Assembly (NCBI GenBank): GCA_051294905.1 | Contig: CM119371.1 | Span: forward strand, 21,578,001-21,642,000 | DNA: 64,000 nt | Direction of reading: 5' to 3' | Origin: Botryllus schlosseri | Taxonomy: Eukaryota | Shown: one piece after another, positions 3-59,276 of the stretch | How positions within the stretch are numbered: the first letter of the stretch is position 1 | How the letters are laid out: the number at the start of each line of letters is the position of its first letter | Program-made: the position numbers and the translations under genes | Notes under the pieces: generated by a model | Told to the model about the DNA's origin: nothing | Database searches by the model: none | Seen by the model: the letters and a program-made list of their open reading frames with translations, nothing else

Positions 3-128
3 TTACTGAAACATCATCTGGATGGGTGTGAAGAATTGCTCCATGAGAAAAAGAAGGGCAGAAGTGGAGCTGGCACATCGTTTCAAGCAATTTATGCTGC
101 AGTGTTCGCCGCGGATTTTAATTCATGA
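3..128 (+). CDS. 3' end of a last coding exon, paralog of exon 58965-59276
   Basis: Frame from 3 reads LLKHHLDGCEELLHEKKKG...FNS*, matching LLENHLNECENLL in the 59-kb copy; the downstream non-coding sequence is also homologous. Confidence 0.45.
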   Translation, partial: LLKHHLDGCEELLHEKKKGRSGAGTSFQAIYAAVFAADFNS

Positions 129-920
129 GGAAACTTTTCTTTGAAATAAGATTGTCGCATTACAATATCGAAGAAAATTAGAGGCAGATAGTAGAACAGT
201 ATTATGAATGACTAAATCTTTCATTCATACCTAATAATATTTCAATTATTCCGGAACTTCTTACGGCCGTCGCCGAATTCGTGGACACGTGTCACACATT
301 GCTGTGAATAATTTTACTTTTTGATATGTATTTCTCATGATTTCAACCACCTTGTTCACAACAAACTTAGCACGTCAGGCCACCTCCAAATTTTACTATC
401 CATACATGTAACTGTCCAATTCAGTGGTTTCAATATCAAAAGTACAGTGGATTTCTCTTGTTGAGGTTATAGTCAGAAATGTAAGGAAGGGTAACAAGTT
501 CCGAGAGATATTTACTCTTACGCCATGTCTTCATATAATTGCGCAATATATTTCCTGATCCGACCGACTCAAGTGTCGTTGTTATCTGAATAATTAGTAA
601 TCGGCTTGGTAATCTCCTGCTTTGTTAACAATGGAGTTGTTAAAGATTGAATACATTTGATTCGAATTGGAAGTAACCATATTTGTGTACCATTCCATAC
701 TTGCTTGGACGCGGGTGCGCAGAACAAGGACTCAAGCGGCTAATAGCGCTCTTCGAAGTCATCCTCTGCATCTCGTTCGGATTCGAAGGAGCGGGCTATC
801 TCGAGAACGATCGAGCGATGGAGAAGGCAGCGAAGCGAACGACTGTGGAAGAACGACGGCACTTTGGTCCGCGGGTCCGATCGCCCTCGCGGCGGTGTGG
901 ACTCCCTCACGGTGAGTTAG

Positions 921-1966
921 ATCTCTGGTTTATCTCTCCATTAGTGATATGTTTATTTCAAAGATTAAGCCATGTAGGTGTAAGTTAGGGCTGGGCACAA
1001 TGATTCGAGTACTCGAATCTGAATCGAGTAATTATTTTAATGATTCGAGTCGAGTAGCAAAATACGATTTTTTCGAGTATTGACATTATATGCTACTCAC
1101 CACTGAGAGGTTCTTTTGTTAACGAGAGTTATGGTTTTGATACTATTTTTCACTGGGGAAGCCTTAAAACCTTAATTGCATACGAAACATAGTACAAAGC
1201 TACAAACGTTACTGGAAATAACACATTTCCGAAGTCACGATCCTCCTACAACATTGTCACAAAGTGCAATGAAATCGGTATAGGGTCGAAATAATACCAA
1301 AGTATCTTTAATGTGATAGATAACAGGCATTATATTCTTTGCGGTGGCATAAAAGGTATATATTTGAACCGTGACATCTTATATACTGTTATTACGTCAT
1401 AATGATTGATACTCGAATACTCGACTCGACTCGAAGTATAATACGTGATTCAGAATCGAATCACTCAAGTACTCGATTTTGCCCAGCCCTAGTGTAAGTA
1501 CGAGCTGAACGCAAAGTGAAACTACGAACGGCTCATTGAATCAGTCTTTGTTTATTTGGTCTCTGATTACGAACTTGGACAACTGTGGTAATTCCAGAGC
1601 TAATAGAGGCGACCAAGCTCCAACTCAGGAAACGTGCTTTTATTAGGTCAAAATCGACCGTGCTCGCTCGCTGACCCGTTTCTTTGGATGACTTTGGATA
1701 ACCACGCGGATCGTTCGGTTTTGCGCCGGCGACGTACCATTCAAGTGTCTGATCAATCAATCTTCGAAGATAAGCTACGGCCTTACCCTTGTGATAGTGG
1801 GTGACGGGGATTCGGGGTTTGATTCAAGAGAGAGAGCCTGAGAAACGGCTATCACATCCAAGGAAGGTAGTAGGTCCGTAAATTACCCATTCCCGACACG
1901 GGAAGGTAGTGACGAAAAATACCAATCCGGGACTCTAACGCGGCTCCGTAATTGGAACGAGACACA
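921..1966 (+). pseudogene. 18S rRNA 5' fragment (~540 nt, degenerate), interrupted by a MITE and preceded by GC-rich 5'ETS-like sequence (~700-920)
   Basis: Degenerate universal motifs ctggttTatc..., aaagattaagccatg, gtgaaactacgaacggctcatt, gagcctgagaaacggctatcacatccaaggaagg, aaattacccattcccgacacggga; ends near gtaattggaacgag. Confidence 0.92.
986..1491. mobile_element. hAT-type MITE inserted in the 18S pseudogene
   Basis: TIR tagggctgggc/gcccagcccta; perfect 8-bp TSD gtgtaagt (978-985, 1492-1499); subterminal TCGAGT/ACTCGA repeats; absent from the copy at 60.2 kb. Confidence 0.93.
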
Positions 1967-3387
1967 TATCTTGAGTCGCATCGTTGTTTACATCATTCAG
2001 TCCAAAACGGCGCCAGACCAGGTCCCGTCCGCGGTCTCCAGCCAAACCCGAATGATTAAAAAGTAATGAAAAAAATTCATAGTTCGCATTTACAGTTAAA
2101 TATTTCGTATTACTGACAGCGGATACGCAAGGCCAACACTGCATCACGGCTAAACAGAGGATGGAACATATAAATATGCCAACTCATATCGTCGTTACAG
2201 CCACTGTTCTGATGGTTTATAACAGTATCCAATTTTGTTCAATACCGCTGTTTGCGAACAACGTAGGCCTACAATACTTGTTAACCCTCGAGATTATTGA
2301 ACCACAATCTGACTTATCAACCTCGCCTACCGACACGTCCAGCCGTTATTTTGTGGCTCCTTTTTTGTAATCCTCTCTGTTAAATCAAATGTGCATGTCT
2401 CCTATTTACACGCTGTTGGCCGGGGGTCGCCAATTCAAAGCGGGTCGCGGGCTACTTTTCAACATCTGTAGAGGCCGCGGGCCGCATGACTTCAATATCG
2501 ATATAAAAATAGGCAACGCAGGTAAACATCCATGTTTTGATGAAATTAGGTCAGTACAACGCCGTGCTCTGTAACGTCGGCGATTGGCATAGTTACCACA
2601 AAATAAATAATATTTTATTGAAGAAATAGAAATACAACAAAAAAATCAGGATCATCACTTTCATTCTATTTCGAACAATGACCTGCGCACAATACCTGAC
2701 AACACCAGTCAGTAAATAAAGCAAGGGTGGCCAACCTTTTTGCTATTTACTGCCGCATTCCAGTGCATAGTCGTAATGACCTAACTGGAGGCCAAATAAC
2801 CACGCTAAACTGTCCTTATCCAGTCCATTGCCGGTGAACTCCGGACTATACTAATAACTGATATTGGGCTACAGTGCGCACCGAAATCGTGAGTGGTAAC
2901 ATTATGTATAAAACACAGGAATCCGATCTGTAGTCGCACGAAGCGCGATTTTTTTTCTTATTTATGAGTTAATTACGTCGATGTTATTAACGCAGTTTCT
3001 CATATTATTTATATTTTTCCAGCCCATGAGATCAGATTCACGAGTAGAGTTCACACAGTGGCCGGGTGTCTTCGAAAATTTAAGTAGGTTGTGAGAACGA
3101 GAATGTTTTGCTCATTATAAAATAGTTTTACCCAAAAATATCATAAGAATAGCAAATCAATGAAACAAAGAAGCAGTCGAAACGAGGTGGACGATTCTAT
3201 ATCAATCGAACAACCAAATTGACGGAAAGAGTACTTTGAAAAGTGGCATGCCCGCTAAATCACACAGAAAATACGTAACATAAAGCTAGAAGCAATGAAG
3301 GACGTCGCTGTGTCAAAATTTAGATCCTTCAATCTCAAAACGACAGCAACTTGCAACTGGTAAGTATGGATTTGAATAATGTATTTT

Positions 3388-11067: not shown

Positions 11068-13779
11068 CAGTGGTTAGAAGTTGGCACAAATTTTAAACTG
11101 CTCCAGCTCCGGAGCTCTATTCGATGATAAATTAGCTCCAGCACCAAGCTCTGGAACTCATTGATACCGCTGCTCCGGCTTCAAAACTATCGAATGGTTC
11201 AGGTATGCAGTCAATAACTACCGTTGCGTCGGGGGACGTCGGGCCGAGCCGGTAAAACATGTCTGAAACAGTGTTTTAAACAATGACCTTTTAAAAATGA
11301 GAAGTTTTAATTTTCAAATTGTACAATTATGCCGTAATTGTGTAAATAGTGTAAGTAGATCTGATTTTCGCTACTTCTACTTCTACTTCTTAATATTTTG
11401 TGATCTACTTACTAACTTTTCGCTATTTTCAGTTTGTCAAGTAGAAGTAGTTCAATCTTCCAATCAGGAAGATAGTCTGAGGAATTTCGGAGCTGTTTTC
11501 ACGGAGTATGAACATTTAATTTTCATAAAAGTTTAGTAAAGCACAGAATTTTCGTCGCGCTTCGCGCGCAGTGGATACGGTGTGACCAGTATGATTTCAA
11601 GAAAGTATCGGTGAATATAATTTAGGTGGAGGGTTGGCGTGGTTCCGTTCACACCACATTGTCGCCCATCACCTATGAAATAATTCATCACAGTATATGG
11701 CTCATCATAACGTTTGAAACTGATGTTTCGCAATCTAGCATTTTCTTGTCATATCGTAATCTAGCATAGGCCTATATATGTCCATGGCGTGTCCTGGAAG
11801 AGTGTTTTAGCATACCACCCTTGAAACTTACTGGACTGAAAACATGAAATACATATTCTGCTTTTAGAAGTAGTATTTATCTTTCACTTTCAATTCTCAG
11901 TATCATATACTTTGAGTTATAATTAATATCAGTTCTTTTGTCCGAATAACATACATGTTGAAGTATAAAAGCAAGTGCAGTAATGCCTTTAATTTCTGGA
12001 AATATAGCTATACAATATGGCATTTTTACGGTCCACCATATTTTTTGGTAACGTTTACAAATCGCGCAAAGTGTTTACACCGTATCCTATACAACTTCTC
12101 CATATTGTTCTTCGACTAAACTACGGGCCTTATATGGGGTATGGCGCCATACCATGCTATTTTTCAAAACGCGTTGTTCGAGAACACAGAGGAATAGTAT
12201 CGCATTTCCTTATCAATACTATCATTTTCACCCCATTATGTGAACGAATGCTTATGCTATCGAAAATTGGATACCTGCTGGTATGCATCAATATGAATCA
12301 AGCTCGTCACCTATCACATAGCTCAATTTGCACCTTTTTATAATCCATCCAATCAGGATCGTTTTCACAACTACTTACTTACTTGAGTACTTTTAAAGTC
12401 AGTCAATTCTACTTCTACTTCAAGTAGTTTTAGGTTGCTCATGAAAGAAGTACTTCTACTTGTACTTGATTAGATTTTTCCGTCGCTACTTCTACTTCTA
12501 CTTGAGTAGCTTTCTTGACTACTTTGAACACCTCTGCAGTTGTAATCAACTTCCTTTGCAAGTATACGTCACCACCACAATGAATCGTCATGAATTGAGG
12601 ATTTAGCGCAGCACATTAATCTGTACAGTCGTTATAAAAACGTTCGACCTTGAAGTCATTTTACATAATGTAAGAGCAGGGACTTCTAGAAATCCCTGTG
12701 CAAGAGTAACATGAATGGATTGGGACATTGGATTTAATGTTCGGACATTGCAACTTCAATTGGTACAAGACAAAATATGTATGTTGTACCGCTAGCATAT
12801 TAAGAGATTTTTTTCTACACTTCCATGTAGTATATAATTCACCAGAAAATTGCCTGAAACGGGCATAGAATCGGTATATTATTTATTGCCCGCCATAGTG
12901 GAACTAAAACCCCAATCATACAATGGACGCGAGGATTAGATCATTTGGTTTCGCGACGTGAGAGGAAAAGAGTGATAGCCTACTATCTTTCAGGGACGCA
13001 ACTGTCGCACGCCAAATCCCCAATAGGGGATGGGAGCTCGAAGGGAATCAAAATTATTTCGTTGGTGTTTTGTTGGAGGATATTTATTCAACCTGAAAAT
13101 CTTGGTCGCGCCTTGAGCAATTTAGTATCCTTATTACGTTACATTTAATTATGATTAGTATGAGAGAAATGTGAATATTTGAGTGAAATAGGCATATCGG
13201 AGTTGGCAATTACCACACATTGAACAGGACTATAGAGTCAACTCCAGGATAAGAGGTGGCCACAGAACATTTTCAAAACCTGAAAATGGGCGACGGCCAA
13301 AAGAAGGCTGAGAGCCCCTGTTTAAAAAAGGTCTTGCTTTAAACATATTTCTTTTAAACTTATTTTTGTTTTAAATGCAACGTTACGTGTAGCACTGTGT
13401 TACGCGTACCACACTTTGAGAAACACTGGCAAATTACTCAATAATAATTTGCTCGGTTCACATGAGCACCAGTCCCATTTTTTTGAAATACATGTAGTGA
13501 TCAAAATTTTTCGAACCACTCTATTGGCTATCAGTGTTGCGCTGATGAAGAAATTGCTGATATCAAGAATAACCACGCACTAGAATATAGTAATGAACGG
13601 CATGTTTCGCATACAAGAGCTCAGTAAGTTATATATGGACAATTTGATCATACTTTTAAAACAACCGGCTCCAGCTTCTGGTCCAGCTCCATCAGAATTT
13701 TATTTGGAGCTCTGGCTCAAGCTTCGGCTCCGCTGAAAATACGCGGCTCCGGGTCTCCGGCTCCGGCTCCAAAGCCCCG
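11068..13779. mobile_element. hAT-type element with GCTCC subterminal repeats, hosting a truncated CAGAGGTG-family copy (~11355-12537)
   Basis: TSD gttatcac/gttttcac; gctccg/gctcca arrays at both ends; the internal block aligns with 52610-54207. Confidence 0.65.
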
Positions 13780-14461
13780 GTTTTCACCTATTTAGATTCC
13801 GTATCATCGCCTGCATCACTCGGGCCAAGGTTAAGAAGTACTGCTATCAGTGGCGGCTCGTGACAATATCGGGTGGTGGGGCAAGGGCTGCGAGCGACTT
13901 TTATCAACATGACGTCACAATGGCGTTTTCCAACGTAAAAAAGTAACTTTAATATGATGGTCACATGAATTTCCCGACAACAGTGATTTTAACGTAGGTG
14001 CCGCGAGAGGTTTGCCGGTGAGCCGTGACTTGAAGTGTGGTAACAAATGTTTTATTCATTTTTTTTTAATCAAAGGATTATTTTACATAATGTACGTGAA
14101 CTAAGAATCGTCCCTATGCCACGAATCAATTATCAGGTCATCCTTAGTAGCATGCGTTATGATTTCATGGTAGAGTTAGAGATTACGCAAATCGATAGGC
14201 CGTCCGAAAGTGTTTCGTACACGATCCTGGTGTGTTACGACCACTGAGCTGGTGGTTACGAGTTACGACCAGGTGATAGGCAACCAAAGCGGAGGTACCC
14301 GGCGTACGATTGGATCAATGTAGTCTTCTAGACCTTTAATTTTCGCTCTAAAGGCAACTGCGTAAACTAGCCTACGTACGGAGCAAAGATTCAATACGAT
14401 TCATGTTCGCACTTGACTTGACCAGACTAATTCCAATGACTAGAACTCGAGAGATTGCGTC

Positions 14462-15339
14462 AGTAGTAGGTATGATCGGTCGTGAGGTGGCAGGGGGTTC
14501 TTATGGGTGCGGTCGCATGCGGCTGGGAAACTCGTGGTGGCATGCGGCTTTTTAGACCCCCCCTCTCGGTCGCATGCGGCTATTGCGTCTTATGGGTGCG
14601 GTGGCATGCGGCTCTTATGTCTTATGGCGGGGGTCGCAAGCGGCTGGGAAACCCGGGGTGGCAAGCGGCTCTTTTGTCTTATGGCGGGGGTGGCATGCGG
14701 CTATTGTGTCTTGTGGTCGCAGATCTCTGGTGATTCGCTATGTGTTCTTATGGGTGCGGTCATGAATCGCCCTTTCGGGTATATGCATCTCTCGCACGGT
14801 GTTGAATATGTATCAAGTAAATAGTCACGTGATTGGTTCTTAGTTATTGTGTATATCACAAATTATTGTATATGACCAATTTTAAGTAATCCCAACGTTT
14901 ACGGTGAGTGCAACAATGATATATCGTTATTCTTATGGCGGGGGTCGCAAGCGGCTCTTATGTCTTATGGCGGGGGTGGCAAGCGGCTATTGTGTCTTGT
15001 GGTCGCACGGTAACCCTTTTCAGCATAGGGATCGGTCGCACGCGGCTTCGTTGTTGGCATGTCGTACTTTCGGGTATAGACTGCAGGCGGCATGTCGTAC
15101 TTTTAGCAAAAAAGGGTGTGAAATAGTTTGCTAAATCTAAGAATCCGCCGCATGGTAATTTTTTGGTAATTAGTTTACCAGAGAGCCGGCGTAGACGGTG
15201 ATTCCAATACCAACAATAACCGCGTTCACAAACTAACACTTCAAATAGGTGTGAAATAGTTTGCAAAACCCCGCGAGCGCTGACAAGATAATGTCTCGGA
15301 CATAACCATCTTTCGCGGCTTCGTGTTACAGGCATATCG
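14462..15339 (+). repeat. Left TIR of the Polinton-like element, with internal GC-rich ~29-bp tandem units
   Basis: Reverse complement of 20207-21084; repeated unit gtcttatggcgggggt(g/c)gcaagcggct. Confidence 0.95.
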
Positions 15340-15809
15340 GTTACCGGCATACCGGTTACATACTTTATCATGGTTTCCGATTTCAAACTGAATGTCGAGA
15401 CATACATGACCAATAAAGACACAATATAGTAAACACGCGGGGGAAAACTCGACCTGGAATTGTTATCGCGATGGGTGACATAAATCCAACCGTTTTCCGA
15501 ACACCGTTATCCACATACCAACCATCCTCAAGGAGGTGTTTTATTCAGACATTTTGACTCTGGAAAATCCAAAGCACGAGCACGGACATTACAAAACTAT
15601 CGAAGCCTATTGTCCAATTTTCCAAAAACATAAACGTCGATGTACAACAGCACATTGCATGTGGGTAACCGATGATTTTGATGAGTTGCATCAGCACAAG
15701 TGAATATGCGATTACACAAATGTATTGGAGTTGTTGTTGGTGTATATTTTGTCGCTATCCGTTGTAACAATATACAAAAATATCAAATTGTCAGGTGTGT
15801 TTGTCAGAT

Positions 15810-16220
15810 TTCAAAATGAAAATGGTATTGTTACCCAGGTAAAAGATAGATTTCCAAGTGAAAACTGTATTGGTACTCAGGTAAATGATAGTTTTCCAAA
15901 CGAAAAGAGTTTGTTACCCAGGGAGAAAATATATTTCTAAAAGAAAATGATTAGTTACTCTAGGTAAAAGTATTTTTCCAAGTGAAAATGATATTTTTAC
16001 TCAGGTAAACGACGGACTACCGAGTTAAAATGGTTTGTTGATCAGAGAAAAAATATATTTCCAAGTGAAAAAGGTTTGTAACCCAGGGAAAAAATATATT
16101 TCCAAGCGAAAAAGGTTTGTTACTCTGGGTAAACGTCAGATCTCCAAAGGAAAGTGATATGTTTAGTCAGGTAAACGATGGACTGTCAAGTGAAAGTGGT
16201 AATTTTACACAGGTAAACGT
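15810..16220 (+). repeat. Degenerate ~41-42-bp tandem array (~10 units)
   Basis: Unit like tttccaagtgaaaactgtattggtactcaggtaaatgatagt; caggtaaa recurs at regular spacing. Confidence 0.8.
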
Positions 16221-19200
16221 CGTGGGCTCAGTGTCGTTGGTCTTGTTAAACGTAGCTGTCGAGTTGTACAATATACTTGTCATGAGTATACAATTACGAA
16301 GGGTGAGAATGAAATTGCTATTATGAGTGCCAGAAGGTTGTTGTATGTAGATTTGACAGTAACCCTATTATTCACATATGACAAACACAATCATTGCCAT
16401 TAACTAACTTGCTCGGTCTCGATCAATGCAAAAGAGATGATTCGTTTTTTGAAACCGTAGCGAAGACCACATGTAAATCTATGCGATAGACTTCTATCTC
16501 CTGACATTCAGTCGTGCCGTTTGCATTTTAATACGGACCTTAATGTATGACATGCACACACTAACGCCGTAAACAGAAGTCGATGATTTTGATTAATAAA
16601 CATATTTCTTGACTACATCGGAATGTCTATGTTGTAGGAAGTAAATACTTTTATGGAGTTGTGTGTTTAATGAAAGCGATTGGTTACAAGTATGTGTTGG
16701 GAAAATAAAATTTACTTTTCTGTATGTGGCAGTTTGTGAGGAAATGAAAATAGATTCGTGGTTTTAATTGAATTGCGCTGTTTTAATGTTCGCTTCAACA
16801 TGGGGACTTGACGCTGAACAACAATTTGTCACTGGTGTGCAAGGGGTTAGGAACATTTTAATACAGCTCCATCTACTGGTTGTTGTGAGGATAATCATGT
16901 GATGACACAGCGCTTTTCGTTAGCAAAGTAGATTGATTTGTGTGTAAGATGTAAGCACCGTAACTAGAAAACATATGTACTCTGTTTTTGGAGTAGTTGG
17001 TTTATTGCTATGACATTGACAGAATATCGAGAAGTGAGTATGCCTTACATTCACGAAAGTTTACGTGGCTCCGTTGTAATAAATTGGTGTTAACTAATCT
17101 CAGCTGGATACTACAATTGTGCTGGACTTACACGTGGTATTCGCATACTGCGCACATACAAACTTTTGTGTAAACAACTCTGATGTTACTGTTGGTACTA
17201 GCGCTGTGTTGAACTATTTGGTTCTTAAGACACATGAACAACCATTCAGACAATAAAGGTCTTGAGGTAACGAAACAGTTTGTAGAGTCAAACCAACCAT
17301 ACTTTAGTTTCGTAATGTGAAAATATCGAGTAAAGTTGATTACTTTGTGTGATGTAAATATCTTTCGTACTTTTGTAAGAGTTGTGGGGGTCTCATGAAA
17401 AAGTAACTAGTTGACAAAAACAAAATATTGAATGAAGGTTCGTCTGTTGTTTTCATAAGTCAAGAGAGTGAAAATTGTTGTTGTTGTTTTTGTTACACTA
17501 AATCAAAATAGTGTGAAAGCGTCACCAATCATTGCGTATGTTCGTAGCATGGAATATCGAATATTTTCGTGTACCATGAATATCTTTCATATACACTTAG
17601 TATGAAATGAGATGCGTGGAATAATAATTAGTGTCCTACAAAAGTAAAACTTGTTGTGTTTGCTTGTGTACTTTTTATCATTGCTTGTTGCGGTTTTGAA
17701 AGACGGGCGAGTTTACATTTAAATATAGTAAGCGGGACAACTCAAGTAATAAATTTTGCTCGGTTGAAAATCGACTCGTTTGAAAATACCGGTCAATGGA
17801 GTAACAGTATCAATGTGAGTAGTATATTATTTTTCGCGAGGTGCACCAATCTTCTAAACTTTTCAAAAATTCATAATGTCATAGAAAAGTCGGTTGTTAT
17901 GAACTCGAAACAAATGTACTTCGATTGTCACGATGATGGAAATTACGATCAACACAGTATTTCGTAAGTGAATGTGTATCGTTTGGTATGTTCAGCAGTC
18001 ACTAAATGACAAAAATAGCAAACTGATGCAACCCGGTAGTTAAACGATACAGTTACAAGTTGGATGTAATCTTGATTTACAGATGACAGCTTGATGATGT
18101 AAAGCTCAGCCACTCAAATGTGTTCATTGCAAAGTATTTGACCAAAAATAAAATATCAAATGGGGACTTCTGTTTCATTACCAAGCGAGTGAAAATTGTT
18201 TTCTGCTGGGTGGATATGATTTACATTTAGAAAAACGATGTAGACCGATTAAGCGACGCTGTTTCATATCCGTCGAGTGAGTAAAATTTCTTTGGAGTTC
18301 GGTTTAGTGAGTTAATCGCTAGGGGTTCAATCACATACAAGTAACGTCTTTTAGTGACAGAGTATTGTGATGACATTTACTTTAGTGAATGACAACGGAA
18401 AAATTTTTGATTGCATTGTCGGTGGGTTACACAAATAATTCTAGTACACCTAACTATAGGACACATTTGGCAAACATCGTACAAATTGTTTCTTTGTGAT
18501 GGTAATGACTTTCAGCGGCTTGGTCTCATGTCGGGAATTATTATTTGAGGGTTGAAAAACAATTTCAATCAATACTACAAACGACCAACAATGCAAAACG
18601 CGTTTAGTGAATTACAGTGTAGCAAGTACTTCCTTGATATTACGATTGTTGTGCACCAGAAATTTCTAACTGAATTGGATGCGTCTAGCAAACATACCCC
18701 AATTTACTTTTGTAATGATCAAAGTCTCCTCGCGATATTTTACATTTAGCACGTTCTATGGAAAGTGTGAACGGAGTTGAGTATTAATCGTGTACTTGGG
18801 ATAGTGCTTTGATATCAAAGATATATTTTCACACTGTGTAATGTTTCGATTCTCTGTTGTGAATACCGACAGTAACGACATTGATGTTAAATCCTCACTC
18901 TTGGTCATTGAAAGCGAATCCTAAACATCGCAACAGTCGGTATGGAAATCGAACGCATGCATAATTTTAGATAGACGACACTAACAAGTTTATTACATCC
19001 GTGAAATACTCTGAAACGTCGATTCGTGATTGTGTTAGCTATATTCATCTTCCATATCTGTGGGCACAAAGATTTCTTAACTTTGGTTACAGCTCATTCG
19101 TAACGAATTGTTGCGTGCAATCTAATAAAGCGCAAGTCGAAGATAAATGATTTGATTTCAATGAGCTTGAAAGTCCTTTTGTTTTGGTGTTGGGTTTAAT

Positions 19201-20206
19201 ACAATTTGTATGACTATAACGAATCCGATTCCAAAAGTGCTATGTTACATTTAACAAAAAGTTTGATGACTTGTATTCTGATATTGATAGATGTGAAAAG
19301 TAATATGACCAGTTTATAAAATCTCGGTAATGTTCTTTGTCATGTCTGTGTTCAACAAATATGCGATCAAGTCTTACCATTCGATATTAACTTTCGCAGT
19401 CGACGTAAGCGATAATTTGTTGAAGTAACAATATCGACGAGTTCAATAATATTCCCCATCGATGCATTCGAATAATCTGTCAGCTGCAAGCTGATTAAAA
19501 ACTTGATGCCGTTTTGTGGTTAACTCAAGTCAGTGGTCGCGTTTGTGTTGATTTCAGGAATGATCATGACGAGTTGGCCGGGTAAATTAGCGGTAGTAAC
19601 TATGACCGTACAGAGTTGCTGACATTCCAATATCTTTTACGCTGTTGTTGTACCGGATCAACACATTCAAATACGAATCAACTTGGTTTGTGTAGTGAGT
19701 TTCATTTCAAGTTGATAAATTGACACATTGATTGAATATTCTCATGATTCGCATCACGCAACCAAAGTCAACGTGAAACATATAGCGATCGCGAAAAGTA
19801 TCAAATCTTGGATATTCAAGTCACCGTCTGCGACGGTTCTGTTATTCGGTGCTTATTTCTTAATAGGTAATATTCTTATTATATCAGACTCGTGAAATCC
19901 AGTTCTGCACCAAACTACCAACATATTACATTGTAGCGATTGGGATGAATGTAACCACAAGTCACGAAAGATGGTTATGTCTTATAGGTGTTATCTTGTG
20001 AGCGATCGTAGGATTTTAGAATTATTTCAACCTTTTTGAATAAGCGTACACTTCACAAAGGATTAGGGTTAGAGTAGAAATAAGTGACAATTTGTCGCTA
20101 TTCAAGTTACCGACACTGGCGGTCTGTTATTCGTTACTTATTAAATCTTTACGAGTGAAATCAAGCTGTGACAAACTGCTTACGAAAATTTCACCGCGTG
20201 AGCGAT

Positions 20207-21084
20207 CGATATGCCTGTAACACGAAGCCGCGAAAGATGGTTATGTCCGAGACATTATCTTGTCAGCGCTCGCGGGGTTTTGCAAACTATTTCACACCTA
20301 TTTGAAGTGTTAGTTTGTGAACGCGGTTATTGTTGGTATTGGAATCACCGTCTACGCCGGCTCTCTGGTAAACTAATTACCAAAAAATTACCATGCGGCG
20401 GATTCTTAGATTTAGCAAACTATTTCACACCTTTTTTTGCTAAAAGTACGACATGCCGCCTGCAGTCTATACCCGAAAGTACGACATGCCAACAACGAAG
20501 CCGCGTGCGACCGATCCCTATGCTGAAAAGGATTACCGTGCGACCACAAGACACAATAGCCGCTTGCCACCCCCGCCATAAGACATAAGAGCCGCTTGCG
20601 ACCCCCGCCATAAGAATAACAATATATCATTGTTGCACTCACCGTAAACGTTGGGATTACTTAAAATAAGTCATATAAAATAATTTGTGATATACACAAT
20701 AACTAAGAACCAATCACGTGACTATTTACTTGATACATATTCAACACCGTGCGAGAGATGCATATACCCGAAAGGGCGATTCATGACCGCACCCATAAGA
20801 ACACATAGCGAATCACCAGAGATCTGCGACCACAAGACACAATAGCCGCATGCCACCCCCGCCATAAGACAAAAGAGCCGCTTGCCACCCCGAGTTTCCC
20901 AGCCGCTTGCGACCCCCGCCATAAGACATAAGAGCCGCATGCCACCGCACCCATAAGACGCAATAGCCGCATGCGACCGAGAGGGGGGGTCTAAAAAGCC
21001 GCATGCCACCACGAGTTTCCCAGCCGCATGCGACCGCACCCATAAGAACCCCCTGCCACCTCACGACCGATCATACCTACTACT
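20207..21084 (-). repeat. Right TIR of the Polinton-like element
   Basis: Mirror of 14462-15339; the ORF track shows mirrored peptides on opposite strands. Confidence 0.95.
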
Positions 21085-21263
21085 TGCGTCAGCCTAACTG
21101 CAAAGGTCAACGACTTCGGACACATACGCAATTGTTATCTCATAGATTGAAGCAGTTTATACGTTGGCGGGCAGAGACTTAAGTTCAGACTATTTTCTGC
21201 GGCGTGCCGTCTTATTTCTAAATTCAAAGCAGTGAAATCCATTGTTAACACATGCTGTTAAGT

Positions 21264-21693
21264 TAGGCTTACCATACGTCCTCTTTTAAGAGGATTTGTC
21301 CTCTTTTTTGGCTTTTTTGAAAGTGTCCTCGGAGGACGCCCTTTTGTCCTCTTTTTTGAGATTTTGTCCTCTTTTTGAAAATTGAGGTCAGATTTAGAGC
21401 AAATTGCGAGTGATATGCCGTAAATTAGCACAGAAGTGACGCTCCGGAGGGTATATCGGAGCGAAACACGCTATATTGAGCTCCGAGCGGAAAGATGACC
21501 ATTTATTTTTTATTATTTTTTAGTCATCCACCTAGCAATGCGGAGAAAAAAACGGTATTTTGGGCTCTGCGCGCCAAGTGATGACCTTTTTTTAGTCAAC
21601 CGGTCACAAAGTGGGAAAAATTCACCGGTTTTACAAGTCTCAAATTTCTGAAAAAGTGTCCTCTTTTTACATTTGCAAAATATGGTAAGCCTA
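21264..21693. mobile_element. hAT-type MITE
   Basis: taggcttaccata / tatggtaagccta; perfect TSD tgttaagt; GTCCTC subterminal repeats. Confidence 0.9.
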
Positions 21694-21972
21694 TGTTAAG
21701 TGGATGTGGTAATATTAGGCCATACCTCTGTGAGTCCTATCTCTGTGTGGATTGGTGAAATATTCTTGATGTTTTGCCAGTTCAGCTAGCAGGTCTTCAT
21801 TAGAAGATTGTATGTATGTCACCGCATGATTTTTCTCATAACGCCGACTCCAATTACAACCATCCACGGATACCTGCTCTAGCTCATTATAATTTAAAAA
21901 GATCAGTTCAAGGCTAACTTCAGCAAGCAAATATTCAATTCTCTAAATCTTTTTGAAAGTTGGGCCTTCAAC

Positions 21973-23018
21973 CAATGTTCCATCTAAACTTCGCACGTGC
22001 GCAAATGCGCAGTGCTGAAACGGTCTCTGCGCACAGAAAATCTAGGCTGCGCACAAAAAATCCGAAGTTATGACTTTTTTTTAATCGTTGCGCACTCTTG
22101 TCCAAGGCCCCGCGCAGGCGCTCACACTCGGGAAAAGTGAGAGGGAACATTGCCAGGGGTAAATAGTGCTATCGCTGAAGTCTGAAACCGAGGTAGGCCT
22201 ACAAGTGCAGCCCGAAAAGGCAAATATTGCGCTCCGCGAAGCAATGAGAATTTGCAATCGTATGCGACTGACGAAAGAGATTTTTCTTTTATATGGTATA
22301 TCGTACGCATGAGCAAAACTGATATCATATCAATAGCGCAATCCTTTGTGGGAATGGCGAAATAACATGGTTTAACAAAGTTTTAAATAACAATGGGCTA
22401 GCTCGAAGTTAACTGCGAGAAACTAACGAATAGTCTTCTCCGCGTGAAATGAATATTGTGTAAGATATACTGTACAAGTGTTCAATTACATGCCGCGAAT
22501 TTTCAAAGCCATCACTTTCATCAGGCGAATCTGATCACGTATGGTGATATAGGATAATATGCAGAATATGCAAGTACAAGCACCAATATTGTTAAAAAAA
22601 ATCCATCCCATTGCAAACGTTGATCGGGAAATGCAGCAACTAGATGCACTGTAGAGCGTTGCATTACATCAGCTTCTCAGCAGCACAAATTTGTGATTTT
22701 ATTCGATTCGTTTGAACGGGTATCTTCCGTCCATAAGGTCATATACGCTGATCTTGTTCTTGCTTCAATCAGACTTGACTATTCGTATCATTATATCTGA
22801 CTGTATGTCTTGATGGTAATGAGTGCATTGCCGGTATCAAGACATAAAGGATTAGTAACGGTGAAAAGCGTGTTACCTGAGGGGGGTCTGGGGCGCTACG
22901 CCCCCCAGATGTACGGTTTATCACCCTATGGGGAGGCTGGTTGCGCACTGTTGTCCAAGGGCCTGCGCAGTGAGTTGGCGTATTTGCGCATACTCGTGAA
23001 AAATTAGAGGGAACATTG
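21973..23018. mobile_element. hAT-type element with a duplicated right end
   Basis: caatgttccatctaa / ttagagggaacattg; perfect TSD ccttcaac; a second right-end copy at ~22090-22151. Confidence 0.8.
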
Positions 23019-34346: not shown

Positions 34347-37155
34347 CAGAGGTGGTCAAAGTAGGAAAGAAAGCTACTCAAGTAGAGCTAGAAGTAGCGA
34401 CGCAAAAATATACGCAAGTACGAGTAGATGTACTTCTTTCATAAGCAAATTTAAACTACTTGAAGTAGAAGTAGAATTGACTGGCTTTAAGTCTACTCAA
34501 GTAAGTAAGTAGTTGTAAAAACGATCGTAATTTGTTCGCATGGACTGTCAAAAGATGCAAATTGAGCAATGCGGAAGCAGTAGAGAGCTTGATTCATATT
34601 GATGAATCCCACGACGTGTCAATTTTGACAGAATAAGCAGTCGTCCACATCATGGGATGAAAATGATAGTATTGATATAGAAATGCGATACTAATCCTTT
34701 GTTTACTCGAACACTCCGTTTTAAAGAATTTCATGGCATGGCGCCCTCCTCCATATTATAAGGCCCCTAGTTTTGTCGAAGAGCAATACGAAAAAGTTGT
34801 ATCGGATACGGATTTAACTCTTTGCGCAATTAGTATACGTTAATTAAAAATATTACAGATCGTCAAAATCCCGTATCGTGTATAGCTTTATTTTCGGAAA
34901 ATATATGGCATTAGGCCTACTAGACTTGCTTTTATACTCCCACATGTATGTTTTCCAGACAAAATAACTGAAATTATAATTAGAACTCAACGTATAATAC
35001 TCGTAATTGAAAGAAAAACACAAATACTACGGAAAAGCGGAAAAATATATTTCATGTCTATTGTCCAGAAAGTTTCAACGGTGGTCTGCGAAAACAGGTC
35101 TAACGTTAGAAAAGTCAAAGTCCACCTTTCCAGATTAGGACATGACAGGCTGTGGAGTCGGTGGAGTCGGAGTCGGATTTTGACTAATTTTCGCTTGATG
35201 GAGTCGGAGTTTGTGAAAATTACCCTGACTTCGACTCCGACTCTAACTTCTGTATCATGAATATAATAATATATAATAGTAATATATTAACTATAACAAT
35301 AGGATTTTTATGTTCTATCAATCACTGTTGTTAGTAACGATACAGATCAGGGGCGGCCAAACCATGCTCCGCAGGCCAAATGTGGCCCGCTGGTAGGTTT
35401 TGTGTGGCCTGCGAGGGAATTCTCGAAATTAGATATAGAATCAGGTAAAATGGCAAGGCCAACCAAAATTTGATTAGCCTGCATAACCGCGAAATTTGAC
35501 GATGACTCTAACATCAGTTTCGACGCATTGGCGTATCCAGGGGCCAGTCACATTCATCACATATCTTCGTATATAACCATAAAGCAGATTTATTTGACTT
35601 GAAATTTTTCTTAACACTTCGCATGATTTATCGTCACATTTCTTGCATCTAGTATTGAAACCCCTCCTGAAAATGATAAATACACGTAATTTACAGAATT
35701 GAGTCCAACTATGCTCGCAACTGGGAGATAACGTGTCGTTCATCATACGACTTCGCTTGTGCGCTCGAAGCGAGGTCGTCGGCGATGAAACATTTGCACA
35801 AAATGACAGAGGCATGTTCACCGAAACCGTCGATGTTGCTATGTCTAAAACACCAGATAATCCTGTCCATGCCGAATAAGCACATTGTCATACAGAGGCG
35901 ACCCCCAATATATGCAAGTAAATATAATTATGGGTCGAATTCATTCATTAACTTTGAAGAAATGTCGGGCTTCGCGCGATCAGGGCATGACCGCACACTA
36001 TGTACAGTTGCACACGGATTTTTCGTGACATAATTGTTATCAATTATAAGACGTAGTTACATAAGTCTTGTTTTCAATGTTACCTAATTCGGTTCGTTTA
36101 TATCAGTCGACTAAAAATACGTTATCAACATTCAAGTTGCCAGCGCAATGGTTAGTAAATCTCATGTGGTCCTTTCGCCGAGAAGGTTGGACACCCCTGA
36201 CATAGATAAACTTGGACATTATTTGCAAAATACAATTCAGTTGCATAGAGGAACAAAGAAGCAATTTGCATCTTCGCGATGCAGTCACAAATTGATGCGC
36301 TTTTTGGAATTATACCATGATATTGTGACAGAGGAAATATATCGTCTGGCTGTTTAATTGATGTAAATATAACCAAACGCTCCTTCCCACTTGACAAAAT
36401 TAAGAATATTTGTAGTGTAGCTTAGCTGCTTGGGTCGAACAAAGGCTTAAGAAAGACTGCAAGTCCAAGTCCTTGAATAATTGACTAGGTTCATGTAGAC
36501 TAGACATATGCTATTTGACTATTTACTACATTTCGTTTTGACTATTTCCTAAATTTCATTTATAACCAATGTCTATTAGTAGTGAGAGTGTGTGGGCTTG
36601 TAATCAGTACAGTGTGTAATGAGAAAATTAGTGAGATGCATCTCTGTATAGGTTGCTGACTCATACACAAGAGCAACACTTGGATTGTATTATCTACATT
36701 TTAATTATACGGGATGGGATAGATGTCGTCTTTGAATGATTCGTACATATTAGGTTATTAGAGAGTCCATGACATGAGGAAGGATATCTAAAAGGCAATC
36801 TTTCATGCACAGTGATTAATTCGAGCTGTGTCACAACGAAACAATTTTGCATGCCATCGTTAATCACTCCATATCTACTGTGCGCGAAGGGTAACGAAAA
36901 TTCTGGGTATTACATAACTTTTATGAAAATTAAATGTTGGCACTACGTGAAAACAGGATATCTTTCTTATTGGGGGATTAAACTATTATTACCTTACCAA
37001 CTGAAAGTAGCGAAAAGTAAGCAAGTAATTCACAAAATATTACGAATTCGAAGTAGAAGTAGCGGAAAAAGATCTACTTGACCAAGTACCAGAAGTAGAG
37101 GAAAATACTTGAGTACTTCGAAAAACTAGAAGTACTTCGTTACTGACCACCTCTG
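34347..37155. mobile_element. CAGAGGTG-family MITE (inverted relative to the 52540 copy), containing a partial GGAGTC-family element (~35146-36810)
   Basis: cagaggtggtcaaagtag / tgaccacctctg; AGTAGAAGTAG arrays; TSD not clean. Confidence 0.75.
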
Positions 37156-38396
37156 CATTCGACCCTCTGTTTTTTTCTCCAAGATATCATATACAATATC
37201 GATAAACCATGAATAATAATCAAAAAATTCAGCTATATTACAGTTTATAAGGAGTCCGTCTTGAATCGAATTCGATAACGTTTGCGAATGCCTGTCTCTG
37301 CCTGTGACAAACGTATAAGTCGAAAATATTCCGATTAATTATATTTATTTCTTGAAATTACCCTAAAAGTTCCATTGTCTAATTTAAAACTAAATCTGGC
37401 AAAACATTAGTTGAAGCTTTTTTCTTGAGCATTTTGTAATCTCTCCTTGCGTAAAGCTGCCGAAAATTATATCCTTCGTATGCAATAGTCTCATGTCATT
37501 GATTTTCGTAATCTCAAACCACAAGCGGGCTGCAGAAAATAACCTCGCGAGTCAGTGACTCTTTTTCAAGTTGATATCAGGGCAACATCAGACGGGATAA
37601 CGATACCTTTCATCATAGAATGTACCGCTATAGTAAATACATGTCACCAATCACTGCTAATATCCACCGGTCGTGCGCAGCGATTATACCGGTGTTCATC
37701 GCTTCGAACGGCACATAAACGTATAAGACCGTCGCGGAGGTATCCAATATATTCACTAATCCGTCTACACTTATATCAACGATGATAAAATATCCAATTA
37801 GTCCTTCACAAGAATTCAAACTCCAATACGTCGACCCATTCCCATCGAGAAATAATTGTTACCAGACAAAAACTCAAATTTTCACCGTCTGAATTCCATA
37901 TGGGCTTGGTAGTCGTGACTTGTAACGATGGGTTACCCACTACGCAAAGCGGAGCGGAATGAATCTAATGGGAGTTGAATATGATTGCGCGTAGTGAAAA
38001 TAGTATTTTCAATTTAGATGGATATTTCGATCGGCATATGCACTAATACTGGTATATTATCAAATATTGAAAGTATTACCGTCAATAATGCCATAGATAT
38101 CCATTTTTACAAGATAGCTACTGGAAAATCGCGCCAACAAAATATGTTGCGGTTGAACATCAATTAGGAATTTAAATTCTGTCTTCGCTCCATCCTACAA
38201 TCTCTATAGTCGCACACAACTGGTTGTCTGCAACTTCATCACTTCACACATGACATAAAACGTAGCCTAAAATTGGAAATGCATCCGTTTTAATGTACAA
38301 TACTTTGGTCGCAAGATGCCACCAAACCTCACATTTTGGGGGACTGTCTACAAAGTTTAAGAATCATATTGTTATACAGTATCAGGGTATATACAT

Positions 38397-39012
38397 TAGG
38401 GCTGTTCAAAAATAACTTTTTTTCCCGGATTTCAGCCATTCACTGATTAAATTGTCAGGTTACCCTAAAAAACGCTACACACCAAATTTGGTTCAATTCT
38501 AACAAGTATAGGACTCCGCTGATCCAATTAAAATTTTTAATTTATTATGGAAAATTAAAAAAAAAACAATTTCAAATTTTCCTGCCAACCCCATGAAATT
38601 GTTGAGCTGTCTTCAAAGACGTTGCAAAACAAATTTGAGTCAATTTCGACCAGTAGAAGCGGAGTTATGTGAGTTTTTCGTTGATAAATCGCGGATTATC
38701 TTTGATTGGTGGATAATCCGCGATTTATCAACGAAAAACTCACATAACTCCGCTTCTACTGGTCGAAATTGACTCAAATTTGTTTTGCAACGTCTTTGAA
38801 GACAGCTCAACAATTTCATGGGGTTGGCAGAAAAATTTGAATTTTTTTTTTTAATTTTCCATGATAAATTAAAAATTTTAATTGGATCTGCGGAGTCCTA
38901 TACTTGTTACAATTGAACCAAATTTGGTGTGTAGCGTTTTTTAGGGTAACCTGACAATTTAATCAGTGAATGGCTGGAATCCGGGAAAAAAAGTTATTTT
39001 TGAACAGCCCTA
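38397..39012. mobile_element. Near-perfect palindromic hAT-type MITE (616 bp)
   Basis: ~300-bp arms (tagggctgttcaaaaataac / gttatttttgaacagcccta), ~11-nt centre near 38701-38711; perfect TSD atatacat. Confidence 0.95.
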
Positions 39013-39421
39013 ATATACATAGCCTTAGTTGAGTTTTGCAGTTTTAGGTGTGCGTGAGCGATACAACGCCTTTGTGCAATGTATATTTAACTCCATATTC
39101 GTTTCTCGGTGCAGAATAAATACAGACTCAATTAAACTTCAATCTGTCAGCAAAACTCGAATACTATGAATCATACCTCATACTTCCAAAATTCAACTCG
39201 ACTTCATTCGTCACTTGTCTCGTGACTTGAGCTGACGAGGCCCGCATCAAAATGCGAAATGACTCGAGATGTCTCATGAATCGAAGGTATCAGTGACTGG
39301 CTCCCGAAACTACTCTGTATCCGACTGGAATCATTCATGTTATTGTCCTAATCGTATCGTACTTACCCGATATGGATGCTCAATCATGTTGCATGTCACG
39401 TTCACTGTTCGCAGTGTACTC

Positions 39422-41332
39422 CAGGGCTGTGGAGTCGGTAAATTTTACCACCGACTCCGGCTCCGACTCCACACATTTTCAATATACCGACTCCGACTCC
39501 CGACTCCGACTCCAGCATTATTACCAATTTACTTCGAAAATTATATGCCACATTGTCGGTTGAATGACTATCATACAAACATTAAACATATGCAAACGGT
39601 GACATGATAAATTGTTTCATTGTGGAACAGCTCGAATTATCCACTATGCAATTTACATGAAAGAAAGACTTGCTAAATATCCTTCCTTTTTCAAGTTTTT
39701 ATAACATGGACTCTCTAATATACTGAAATGTATGAATCATTCAAATAGGGCAGATGTCCAATCCTGTATAATAAAAATGTAGATAAAAAATCCAAGTGTA
39801 GTTCTTGTATATGATTCAGCAACTAATAAAGAGATTGAACTTACTAATTTTGCCATTGCACACTATCCTAATTACAAGCACACACATTCTTACTACTAAT
39901 AGTTATTGATCATAAATGGAATTTAGTTAAGTAGTCAAAGACCATAGCCTATGTCCAGTCTACATGTACTTTAATCAAGTATTCAAGGATTGGGACTTGC
40001 AGTCTTTCTTAATCATTTGTTCGACCCGAACAGCTAAGCTACACGACAAATATTTTAAATTTTGTCCAGTGGGAAGCACCCTTTGGTCATATTTACATCA
40101 TTTTGACAATTTTACAAAACCAGCCGATGCATTTGCTCTGTCACAGTATCATCGTATAATTCCAAAAATTGCATCAATTTTGACTGCATCGCCAAAACGC
40201 ATATTGCGATTTTCTTCCCCTCTGCAACTGAGTTGTGATTTGCAAGTAATGTCCAATTTTATCTATATCTGGGGTGGGCAACTTTTTCGGCCAAAGGGAC
40301 ACATGAGATATACGAACCATTGCGCGGGCAACTGGAATGTTGATAGCCTTTTTTAGTCGTCCGATAGGAGCGAACCGAATTAGGTAACATTGCAAACAAG
40401 ACTTATATTGATACGCTCTAAAATTGATAACAATATATGTCATGCAACTGTGCAGTGCGCAACGAGGGTCAGGTCGCGCCAAGGGCGAAATTTTTTGGCA
40501 AGATAATGACTGAATTATATCAATAAATATGTTGATAACATACATTGGGGCTCGCATCTGTATACCATTGGGCTCATTTGGCAAGGACAGGATTATTCGA
40601 CGTTTAGACATAGCAAAATCGACGGTATCAGTGAACATGAACATGCCTCTATCATTTTGTGCAAATGTTTTGTCGACGATCTCGCTGCGAGTGCACAAGC
40701 GAAGCCGCTTGTTAGGCGACACGTTATCTCCTAATTGCGAGTATAATTTTCAGAAGTGGGCTCAAATACTGAGTGCAAGAAATCTAGTGACAATGAATCA
40801 TGCAAAGTACCGAGAATAATTTCAAGTCAAATAAATCTGCTATGAAATATTCTACTTTATGGTCATATACGAAGATTTGGGATAAATGTGACTGGCCCCT
40901 GGATACGTCAATGCGTCAGAACTGTTGTTTTAGTCATCATCAAATTTCGCGGTCATGCTAATCAAATTTTGGTTGTCCTTGCAATTGTACCTGATGTCAT
41001 AAATAATTTCGAGAATTACCTCGCAGGCCACACCTAACCTTCTCGTGTGCCAAATTGGGCCTGCGTGCCACGGGCTGGCCGCACCAGATCTGTATGGGTA
41101 TTAATAACAGTGATTGGTGGTACATAAAAAATTCTATTGAAAATTCTTCGAAAACAAATGTTTTCATGATGGAGAAGTTGGAGTCGGAGTCGGAGTTGAA
41201 GTCACGGTCATTTTCACAAACTCCGACTCCGACTCCAGTCAGTATTTTTCCACCGACTCCGACTCCATCAACGAAAATTACCCAGACTCCGACTCCGACT
41301 CCACCGACTCCGACTATGAGTCCACAGCCCTG
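39422..41332. mobile_element. hAT-type element with GGAGTC/GACTCC subterminal arrays, containing an older Charlie-like insert (~40269-41088)
   Basis: cagggctgtgga / tccacagccctg; perfect TSD gtgtactc. Confidence 0.9.
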
Positions 41333-51417: not shown

Positions 51418-53607
51418 GTCATGACCCATCCTCAACGCACGAATCAGCACTCCTCGGCGTTGACTTTCAAACTGTGTACATGGTCGCTCGTTTAAATCAT
51501 ATAAAAAAGCACCGTACTAACGTCAACTTTTTTCACAATTCTTGAACAGAAATTAAATTTACATGAACTGACCATTGCTTGACAAAAAACAAATAACAGC
51601 TTTTGTTTATATGGCTCAGTGGTTCTAGATGATTGATTCAGTCAATCATATTGGAGAAAATATAGATGATAAAGGAAGGAAAGTGTAAGCAGGAGTTGAA
51701 TAGGTTTGGGTTTCGTTCGATGTAACAGTAGCCTTGTTATATGTTATCAGTTTACCTTAGTAAGGTATGCATACATCTTTAATGATTTGAAAAAGAACGG
51801 TAGACTACTGTATGGTCGAGGCATCATTATAATAATTATCATACAGTTTATCTGTGCACATATCTCTTTATATAACTTTCTATATAATTTTCTGACTGCA
51901 GAAAGTTACTGGTTTATGTTTGTATGCATATTCTTATTTGATTGACCGGGTTGCAAGTGCGTGTGTACGGTAGCTGTCAACTCGACGGGCCAAGCTGACG
52001 CAAAGGCCAAGTCCACACTGGGAATACCTTCACAAAATGGAGTTATTATCCATTGTTGAACGTCATCGGGATATATTCCGTTATGATCATGAACAGCCGG
52101 ATGCCGGAAGATTCATGGTAGCGAAAGATTGTGCCATAGCACAAGCACCGCTGTATAGTGCTGATTGAAAGGGTATCATACAACTACTTTGGTAGCATGA
52201 AAATCAGTCACGCAACAAAGTACCCAAAGAGGGATTTGTCTTATATTTATCTACAGAAGACTGCCACAACAACTACGTCGTGGATTCTGGAGATTGTATG
52301 CCCTATGCCCGGACATTCGTCAGCTATGGGTTCAAATACTGCATGTCAAGGTGGAAAGCAAATGCAGTTCTACAACTGATGTTGAAACAATGCCGTCAAT
52401 GTTATGAACTTCAGAAACTGCTCTGCGAGAATACTGTACTTACGATAACTATGTCAGGAGAGATCATGTCTAATCATACCATATTTTATCAGTTCACATA
52501 TTATATATAGTTAGGCTGTCAAGTATGGTGTGTTTTATCCAGTGGTGGTCAGTAACGAAGTACTTCTACTTTTTCGAAGTACTCAAGTAGTTTTCCTCTA
52601 CTTCCGGTACTTACTCAAGTGGATCTGATTTTAGCTACTTCTACTTCTACTTCGTAATATTTTGTGATCTACTTACTTACTTTTCGCTATTTTCAGTTTG
52701 TCAAGTAGAAGTAGTTTAATCCTCCAATCAGGAAGATATAGCCTGAAGAATTTCGGGGCTGTTTTCAAGGAGTAGGCTATCGAATTTAATTTTCATAGGA
52801 GTTGAGTAAAGCCCAACATTTTCGTCGCGCTTCGCACTCAGTGGATACCGAGCAACCAGCATGAATTCACAAAAGTATCGGTGAATGTAATTTAGGTAGC
52901 GGGTTGGCGTGGTTCCGTTCACACCGCATTGTCGCCCTTCACCCATATGAAATATTTCATCACAGTATATATGGGTCATCATGACGCTTGAAACTGATGT
53001 TACGCAATTCACAATTTACTTATCATATCTAACAGTCCATGGCGTGTCCTAATCTGGAAAATTGGACTCTTACTTTTTTTTTAGTTTTAGAGCTGTTTTA
53101 GCATACCATCTTTGAAACTTTCTGGACTTAAGAAATGAAATACATTTTCCGCTTCTAGGAGTAGTATTTATATTTCACTTTCCATTCCCAGTGTCATATA
53201 CTTGAGTTCTAATTAATATCAGTTCTTTTGTCTGGGTAGCATACATGTTGAAGTATTAAAGCAAGCGTGGTAATGCCTTTAATTTCCGGAAATAAAGCTA
53301 CACAATATGGCACTTTTACGATCCACCATAATTTTATTCACGTTTACTAATCGAGCAAAGTGTTTATACCGTGTCCTATACAACTTCTCCGTATTGCTCT
53401 TCGACTAAACTACGGGCCCCATAATATGGGGGAGTGCGCTATACCATGATATCTTCTAATGCATGCTGTTCGATTAAATAGAGGATTAGTAGCGCATTTC
53501 CATATCAAAACTATCATTTTCATCCCATGATGCGGACGAATGCTTATGCTATCGAAAATTGAATACCTCCTGGTATGCATCAATATGAATCAAGCTCGGC
53601 ACCATTC

Positions 53608-53764
53608 TGTGGCAGCCCTCGTGCGTCCCCTATCTGGGTTGGCGCCCTTGGGATGCTCTAGTGATTGCATGCTAGGCGTGTCTTCTTGTGTTTGGTCTCG
53701 TCGCTGCTGGATTGTTGAGTACGATTGAGTGAATAAACCTCCTATCTGAGCAAAGGTCTCTACA
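53608..53764 (+). mobile_element. Candidate solo LTR (157 bp)
   Basis: Discrete insert relative to sister MITE copies; TGT...ACA ends, AATAAA at 53732, flanks attc/tttc. Confidence 0.6.
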
Positions 53765-53830
53765 TTTCGCATAGCTCAATTTGCACCTTTTTGGCAATCC
53801 TGCGAACGAATGACGATCGTTTTCACAACT

Positions 53831-54041
53831 AACCAATGGGTGCGGGATGGAGTACGACCTAGGTCGAGTTCCGATGGCTAAATGTTGGAGGTTTACCTAG
53901 TCTCCTCCTCGCCACCTCATCGGTGTCTTACAAAAGCCTAGAGGAGGGCCGTGCTATAAGTCGGAAAATAAGAAGAATATCGGCCTGGTGTAAATGACCA
54001 TAGTAGTCGACAAACACCATGACTACCTCAAAACAAACAAA
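53831..54041 (+). mobile_element. 5'-truncated SINE (29682 family)
   Basis: Shares accaatgggtgcggg, tatcggcctggtgtaaatgac and caaacaccatg with 29682-29880; (caaa)n tail. Confidence 0.7.
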
Positions 54042-54224
54042 CTACTTACTTACTTGAGTAGATTTAAAGTCAGTCAATTTTACTTCTACTTCTAGTAGTT
54101 TTAAATTGCTCATGAAAGAAGTACTTCTACTCGTACTTGAGTAGATTTTTTCGTCGCTACATCTACTTCTACTTGAGTAGCTTCCTTGACTACTTTGACC
54201 ACCTCTGGTTTTATCAAATAAATG

Positions 54225-58964: not shown

Positions 58965-59276
58965 GAACGGCGAGGAATTCTAGACGCTCGAAAAATCCGT
59001 ATTAGACAGAGTTACGATGAAATGAGACAACACCGACCAAGAAGGAAAAAAAAGGAAATCAAACGTGAATTATTGAATCAAGAACGACGCGAATGCAGCT
59101 GTTTCAACTTTCCGCAGAATTTACTCGAAAATCATCTGAATGAGTGCGAAAACTTGTTAAAGAACCACGGAAATCTATTGGACAGACCGTTGAAATTTGT
59201 GTATGCTGTAGGTCGCGTCGCGCTTCAAGTCGGACTTTTCGGTGTTGGTCTTTTCAACGCCATTGCCGGAAATTAA
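58965..59276 (+). CDS. Candidate last coding exon (ERRGILDARK...LLENHLNECENLL...IAGN*)
   Basis: Acceptor cctttcaatttcag, phase 0, 103 codons plus TAA; peptide motif conserved in the paralog at 3-128. Confidence 0.55.
   Translation, partial: ERRGILDARKIRIRQSYDEMRQHRPRRKKKEIKRELLNQERRECSCFNFPQNLLENHLNECENLLKNHGNLLDRPLKFVYAVGRVALQVGLFGVGLFNAIAGN

Follow-up and report, generated by a model that had tools for sequence, protein, structure and literature searches.

A multi-copy, gene-less element with Polinton-type ends in the genome of Botryllus schlosseri

Non-autonomous Polintons, also known from Repbase, carry the ends of a Polinton but lack part of its gene set, and are moved in trans; Kapitonov and Jurka are said to have named such elements in 2006. 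Among vertebrate Mavericks, (AGT)2 is reported as the commonest end motif, with (AG)3 also occurring, and the elements are described as 12.7–24.6 kb long, with seven to eight core genes, 6-bp duplications and, when intact, arms of 46–1,447 bp (PMC8097293). Arms of 744 bp are given for Polintons of C. elegans (PMC11414722), and a study of anole Polintons speaks of an apparent absence of non-autonomous copies (PMC3014272). Within the titles and abstract openings searched, a body of literature lying mostly outside the subscription papers, no gene-less Polinton family of the form described here was met with; the term 'non-autonomous polinton' occurred there only in connection with Tlr1, and 'non-autonomous maverick' nowhere. 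A gene-less, Polinton-ended element is treated here as a known but thinly documented kind.

The element described below occupies positions 14462–21084 (6,623 bp) of a 64,000-nt stretch of contig CM119371.1 from Botryllus schlosseri, the whole of which is referred to as the window. The insertion is real and fairly recent, and the inserted element is multi-copy, gene-less and Polinton-ended. It is probably a non-autonomous element that has retained no more of a Polinton/Maverick than its cis signals, namely (AGT)2-ended long inverted arms, and that was copied and inserted in trans by the polymerase and integrase of a Polinton.

Termini, arms and host site

The initial annotation had described long terminal inverted repeats, AGTAGT termini and a perfect 6-bp target-site duplication, all of which were borne out. 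The left repeat (14462..15339, + strand, 878 bp, 49% GC) starts with AGTAGTAG, and the right repeat (20207..21084, - strand, 878 bp) ends on the + strand with CTACTACT. AGTAGTAG is read inward at both ends, and this 9-mer end motif is present nowhere else within the window; the element termini are thus AGTAGT, of the (AGT)2 type, with AG..CT ends. The two arms are 99.2% identical, with seven mismatches over 878 bp (arm positions 192, 407, 416, 417, 464, 553 and 653), and homology breaks off sharply at arm position 879. Their outer 191 bp are without any difference, which is no departure from chance (p 0.18). Among 85 inverted pairs in the window the arm pair is the longest, the runner-up being 293 bp at 83%. 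The GC content of the arms is 49.4%, compared with 36.3% for the interior and 40–41% for the flanks. The interior, given as 4.9 kb and AT-rich in the initial annotation, is 4,867 bp long and only moderately AT-rich.

Beyond the features noted initially, the element has 32-bp subrepeats in its arms, a tenfold 41/42-bp minisatellite (see below) and a decayed duplicate of the inner end of the right arm. The subrepeats of the left arm lie at 14499..15007 (+ strand), with seven core matches and nine GCAWGCGGCT motifs; this zone includes two copies of a 67-bp block, 286 bp apart, and its mirror zone in the right arm is 20539–21047. A 15-bp tandem repeat of 2.4 copies (15325..15360, + strand) straddles the left arm's inner boundary. 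The decayed duplicate (19905..20040, + strand) is a direct, 74% identical copy of 20171–20306, a source that runs across the right arm's present inner boundary, which suggests that this boundary shifted during the history of the family. Folding of a single arm gave no signal (z -0.25), and an Rfam search of 13000–22500 returned no match.

The hexamer TGCGTC flanks the element on both sides (14456..14461 and 21085..21090, both + strand), and the chance of such a 6-bp flank match is about 2.4e-4. An 8-bp duplication, TGCGTCAG, was rejected because the left arm's end would be cut and the arms left unequal. The insertion lies in a multi-copy host repeat, the left part of which was placed at 13726..14455 from depth and loose read ends (the start is approximate, and several nested repeats may be involved); the same repeat resumes behind the element from 21091 to at least 21120, as the loose ends at 14460 match 21091 onward. 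In the public runs X7 and X24 (see below), one X7 contig and 26 X24 reads run from 14460 into 21091 onward with the hexamer present once. Since the hexamer is single in other copies of the host repeat, the flanking TGCGTC copies are a genuine target-site duplication, which confirms the element's exact ends as well. These empty-site reads may all come from paralogous copies of the host repeat, and hence give no sign of polymorphism at the locus.

The window consists of non-coding DNA rich in repeats, from an animal that shows no CpG loss here (CpG observed/expected 1.05–1.2, not depleted; no Pfam match for the 89 tested ORFs of at least 80 aa outside the element), and the single copy within it is an otherwise ordinary transposon insertion. 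About 180 bp to the right of the element is a MITE-like sequence of about 430 bp (approximately 21267–21693) with the short inverted ends TAGGCTTACCATA ... TATGGTAAGCCTA. A dispersed repeat of about 2.5–3 kb is represented by two copies in the same orientation (112–3027 and 59267–61797, 80–86% identical), the tested ORFs of which are without a Pfam match, and a repeat family of 1–2 kb by three partial copies (11353–12536, 34347–37158 and 52537–54207, 77–93% identical). Inverted copies of 1.7 kb at 35162–36861 and 39595–41267 (75% identity, 2.7 kb between them) are possibly an older long-armed element. They enclose a near-perfect hairpin of 640 bp (38384–39025, arms 96–98% complementary, 11-nt loop), which is probably a young MITE-like element.

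Copies of the family and their mobilisation

Part of the interior was found in 20 of 24 listed public runs, from 11 studies (shares 0.23–0.79), and the reads of four runs (X1, X6, X7 and X24) were placed on 13500–20260, comprising the left flank, left arm and interior. The initial annotation had named a single-copy interior as evidence against its own reading; the interior proved to be multi-copy in three runs, with all 22 interior bins exceeding the first flank bin at least 313-fold in X1, at least 42-fold in X6 and at least 21-fold in X7. Relative to the same flank bin, the medians of the interior bins were 657 (X1), 167 (X6) and 52 (X7), values of summed contig depth that do not equal copy number. 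Single X7 contigs of 168–300 bp with 0–6 differences had depths of 51–238, and diverged pieces 3–6, while near-identical X6 pieces (2–7 differences) had depths of 23–137 against 3.3 in the flank bin. At a rough estimate, the family, multiplied as a unit of about 6.6 kb, numbers tens of copies or a few hundred. That whole copies are collinear is suggested by the even depth and by how few of the 15 joints listed (of 219) are large, no single contig spanning the element. Since X6 and X7 also cover flanking host DNA, the whole genome of the host or of a close relative is present in those runs, and horizontal transfer, which was also considered, is unsupported. No transcript of the element was evident in X24, in which coverage is thin and two-stranded and 481 of 504 reads fit only partly, and this is not evidence of silence.

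Variants within the family include arms with deletions and interiors with a 734-bp skip. At 14758–15069, family reads show skips of 123–297 bp and a back-jump of about 270 bp, indicating that arm length differs among copies. The interior skip, from 17437 to 18172 in 15 X1 contigs, coincides with a pair of duplicates at 17405–17479 and 18132–18200 (75% identity), and represents either a deletion variant or mis-placement between these two copies. Among the variant rows listed (40 of 680), two of 38 fall in the arm, which is fewer than in the interior but not separated from chance (p 0.06).

The 6.6-kb form is unlikely to be a rare by-product, with the multi-copy signal coming from larger elements that contain arm and interior and the present copy being a one-off rearrangement integrated once. 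Such a reading would fit the lack of any contig bridging the whole element, the arm bins of X7, which are 3.6-fold deeper than the interior where 2-fold is expected, and the other arrangements seen (loose ends near 19645–19648 and the 734-bp skip). However, high depth continues across both arm–interior junction bins, the other two runs have arm-to-interior depth ratios of 1.7 and 0.8, and no interior fold-back joint occurs among the 15 of 219 joints listed.

The initial annotation had called the element young, and in a relative sense it is. Divergence between the arms is 0.8% (exact 95% range 0.3–1.6%), or about 0.4% per arm, and at 26 of the 36 interior variant rows listed (among 40 of 680 rows in all) at least 90% of X1 depth departs from this copy, a difference of at least 0.5%; these at least 26 sites thus set it apart from nearly all family reads. 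The other dispersed repeat pairs of the window are 64–93% identical. As the arm and interior-variant figures agree, the copy is far younger than the other dispersed repeats of the window, yet not brand new.

For mobilisation of the family, a resident Polinton would supply the protein-primed polymerase, whose start site would be the AGT repeat. Via the arms, the displaced strand could then fold into a panhandle, allowing one arm to be copied onto the other, and the retroviral-like integrase of the Polinton would insert the copied product. A racket-like single-stranded intermediate has been proposed for Polintons, the replication and integration of which are presented as largely a bioinformatic model (PMC4196379); pairing of the strand through its arms before re-synthesis corresponds to this racket model, and with such pairing copying from arm to arm would be expected. 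At position 14847, both arms carry a letter that is absent from 80%, 100% and 95% of read depth in three runs. The presence of this family-rare letter in both arms suggests a single mutation that reached both, and hence arm-to-arm copying; the signal comes from a single site, with 40 of the 680 variant rows listed. The shared letter could also stem from gene conversion after the insertion, or from assembly effects; the seven differences between the arms indicate that they were assembled separately.

The trans-integrated, satellite-like replicon proposed in the initial annotation thus agrees with the end motif, the 6-bp duplication and the multi-copy interior, but its helper was not found: searches for a helper with the same arm sequence, using arm DNA patterns, gave no match in viral contigs and none in metagenome contigs. 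A more specific form of this proposal, in which the element is a unit-length satellite of an animal polintovirus, i.e., a 6.6-kb gene-less linear DNA that is replicated and packaged by helper proteins and has longer palindromes as its fold-back counterparts, is unlikely. If true, element and palindromes together would form an inherited counterpart of defective-interfering viral genomes, subject to a capsid size rule.

It is very unlikely that the element is instead a non-autonomous cut-and-paste transposon with long, subrepeat-rich arms (IS3EU/GingerRoot or foldback-like), moved by a simple transposase and ending in AGT by coincidence. The 32-bp subrepeats do resemble transposase-binding arrays, a likeness that applies to arms built of subrepeats, but such movement would not be expected to leave a family-rare letter in both arms, and no trace of a transposase appeared in the Pfam scan or in the family scan of stop-free stretches (see below). 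Duplications of 6 bp are also made by IS3EU and GingerRoot, and the element has this in common with them, whereas the families with 6-bp duplications named in the same source besides Mavericks, these two included, have TA..TA or TG..CA termini and not AGTAGT (PMC10045372). Mobilisation in trans by a Polinton remains the preferred explanation.

Coding content of the interior

The non-coding interior (15340..20206, no strand assigned, 4,867 bp, 36% GC) is multi-copy throughout and G-skewed on the + strand (0.12). Its minisatellite (15806..16217, + strand) consists of about ten units of 41–43 bp, most of them 41 bp, so that a reading frame is not preserved. Each interior frame contains 72–113 stops in about 1,622 codons. 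When decay of a coding gene was simulated, about 3 stops per frame arose at 1% divergence and about 23 at 10% (range 3–23), far fewer than observed, which indicates that the interior was already non-coding at insertion and that this copy did not decay in place, as had been argued in the initial annotation. That annotation had also reported no long internal ORF (about 100 aa), and the longest wholly internal stop-free stretch is indeed 111 aa, equal to the null mean (111) and reached by 43% of 300 nulls; the longest ATG-started internal ORF is 55 aa. A frameshift-tolerant stop path through the interior was not below the null on either strand (z -1.1 on both), and 3-base periodicity was indistinguishable from that of the flanks (p 0.14). 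Stop-free stretches of at least 40 aa are slightly over-represented (56 versus 46.8 +/- 5.2, reached by 5% of 300 nulls), which counts slightly against a purely non-coding origin of the interior.

No family was found in a Pfam scan of all six interior frames. A family scan of 57 stop-free stretches (54 of the 56 interior ones and three boundary ORFs) gave six weak, unrelated matches (best E 0.009), far below the cut-off, and PHROGs searches with 12 half-frames gave three weak matches of unknown function (best E 0.007), taken as chance. Six PDB searches, including one frame only from 15944 onward, returned a single match at E 0.74 and none below E 0.7. Three word-based protein searches with the interior found nothing, a result that is weak as evidence, and an Atlas search with the 111-aa stretch gave no usable match. 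For one + strand frame close to the left end of the interior, the comparison was with Pfam and PHROGs only. Polinton genes (polymerase, integrase, capsid, ATPase and protease) were not detected in the element by the Pfam, PHROGs and PDB searches, and the searches run, which did not set every frame against every library and are weak for frameshifted fossils, gave no link between the interior and any Polinton gene.

A phmmer search with one + frame (16620–20204) against 1.84 billion proteins produced three matches, all unnamed gene calls on ENA contigs of 0.7–3.1 kb and 51–89% identical to the window translation. These matches switch frame relative to the window, and were therefore taken as diverged DNA copies without a conserved frame rather than as genes. 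Pattern matches likewise revealed no related loci, with none of 83 confirmed for P0001 and none of 47 for the 111-aa stretch. The interior would be filler, already without coding function when this copy inserted, and may derive from a very old, eroded Polinton or from captured DNA; the interior of the family may have an older, remote coding origin.

That a single autonomous Polinton inserted here and then decayed and lost its genes in place is extremely improbable and largely refuted for this copy: it would be in keeping with the 96% of vertebrate Maverick loci reported to be eroded fossils (PMC8097293), the slight excess of stop-free stretches and the strand skew, but the arm divergence of 0.8% leaves room for some 3 new stops in 1,622 codons, not 72–113 per frame, neither the frameshift-tolerant path nor the 3-base periodicity is significant, and the interior is multi-copy.

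Significance and comparison with known systems

A gene-less family with many copies means that cis signals would be enough for mobilisation by a helper. It also offers a direct sequence test of the Polinton replication model, under which each arm of a copy should be most closely related to the other arm of that copy. Polinton mining by protein searches misses such elements, and the Polinton share of animal genomes may therefore be undercounted.

The likeness to the non-autonomous Polintons of Kapitonov and Jurka and of Repbase is one of ends, of an incomplete gene set and of presumed movement in trans. A functional analogy only is provided by LARDs, in which multi-kb non-coding DNA between intact terminal repeats is relocated in trans; these differ in being LTR retroelements, which have direct repeats and move through an RNA intermediate (PMC6431247). 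Mobile, polinton-related insertions without polB have been described in butterflies, which are likewise flanked by arms and apparently amplified without a polymerase of their own, but which retain other Polinton genes and transposon cargo, none of which is recognisable here (bioRxiv 10.1101/2025.02.07.637071). As the initial annotation had held, the ends and the 6-bp duplication are of Polinton type and match those reported for Mavericks (PMC8097293); polymerase and integrase genes were not detected. With autonomous Polintons/Mavericks the element has in common (AGT)2 ends, a 6-bp duplication and arms of several hundred bp (878 bp here), whereas they are 12.7–24.6 kb long with seven to eight core genes and it measures 6.6 kb and has no detectable gene. 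Having Polinton ends but not the gene features, the element behaves like a Polinton passenger and is not an autonomous Polinton.
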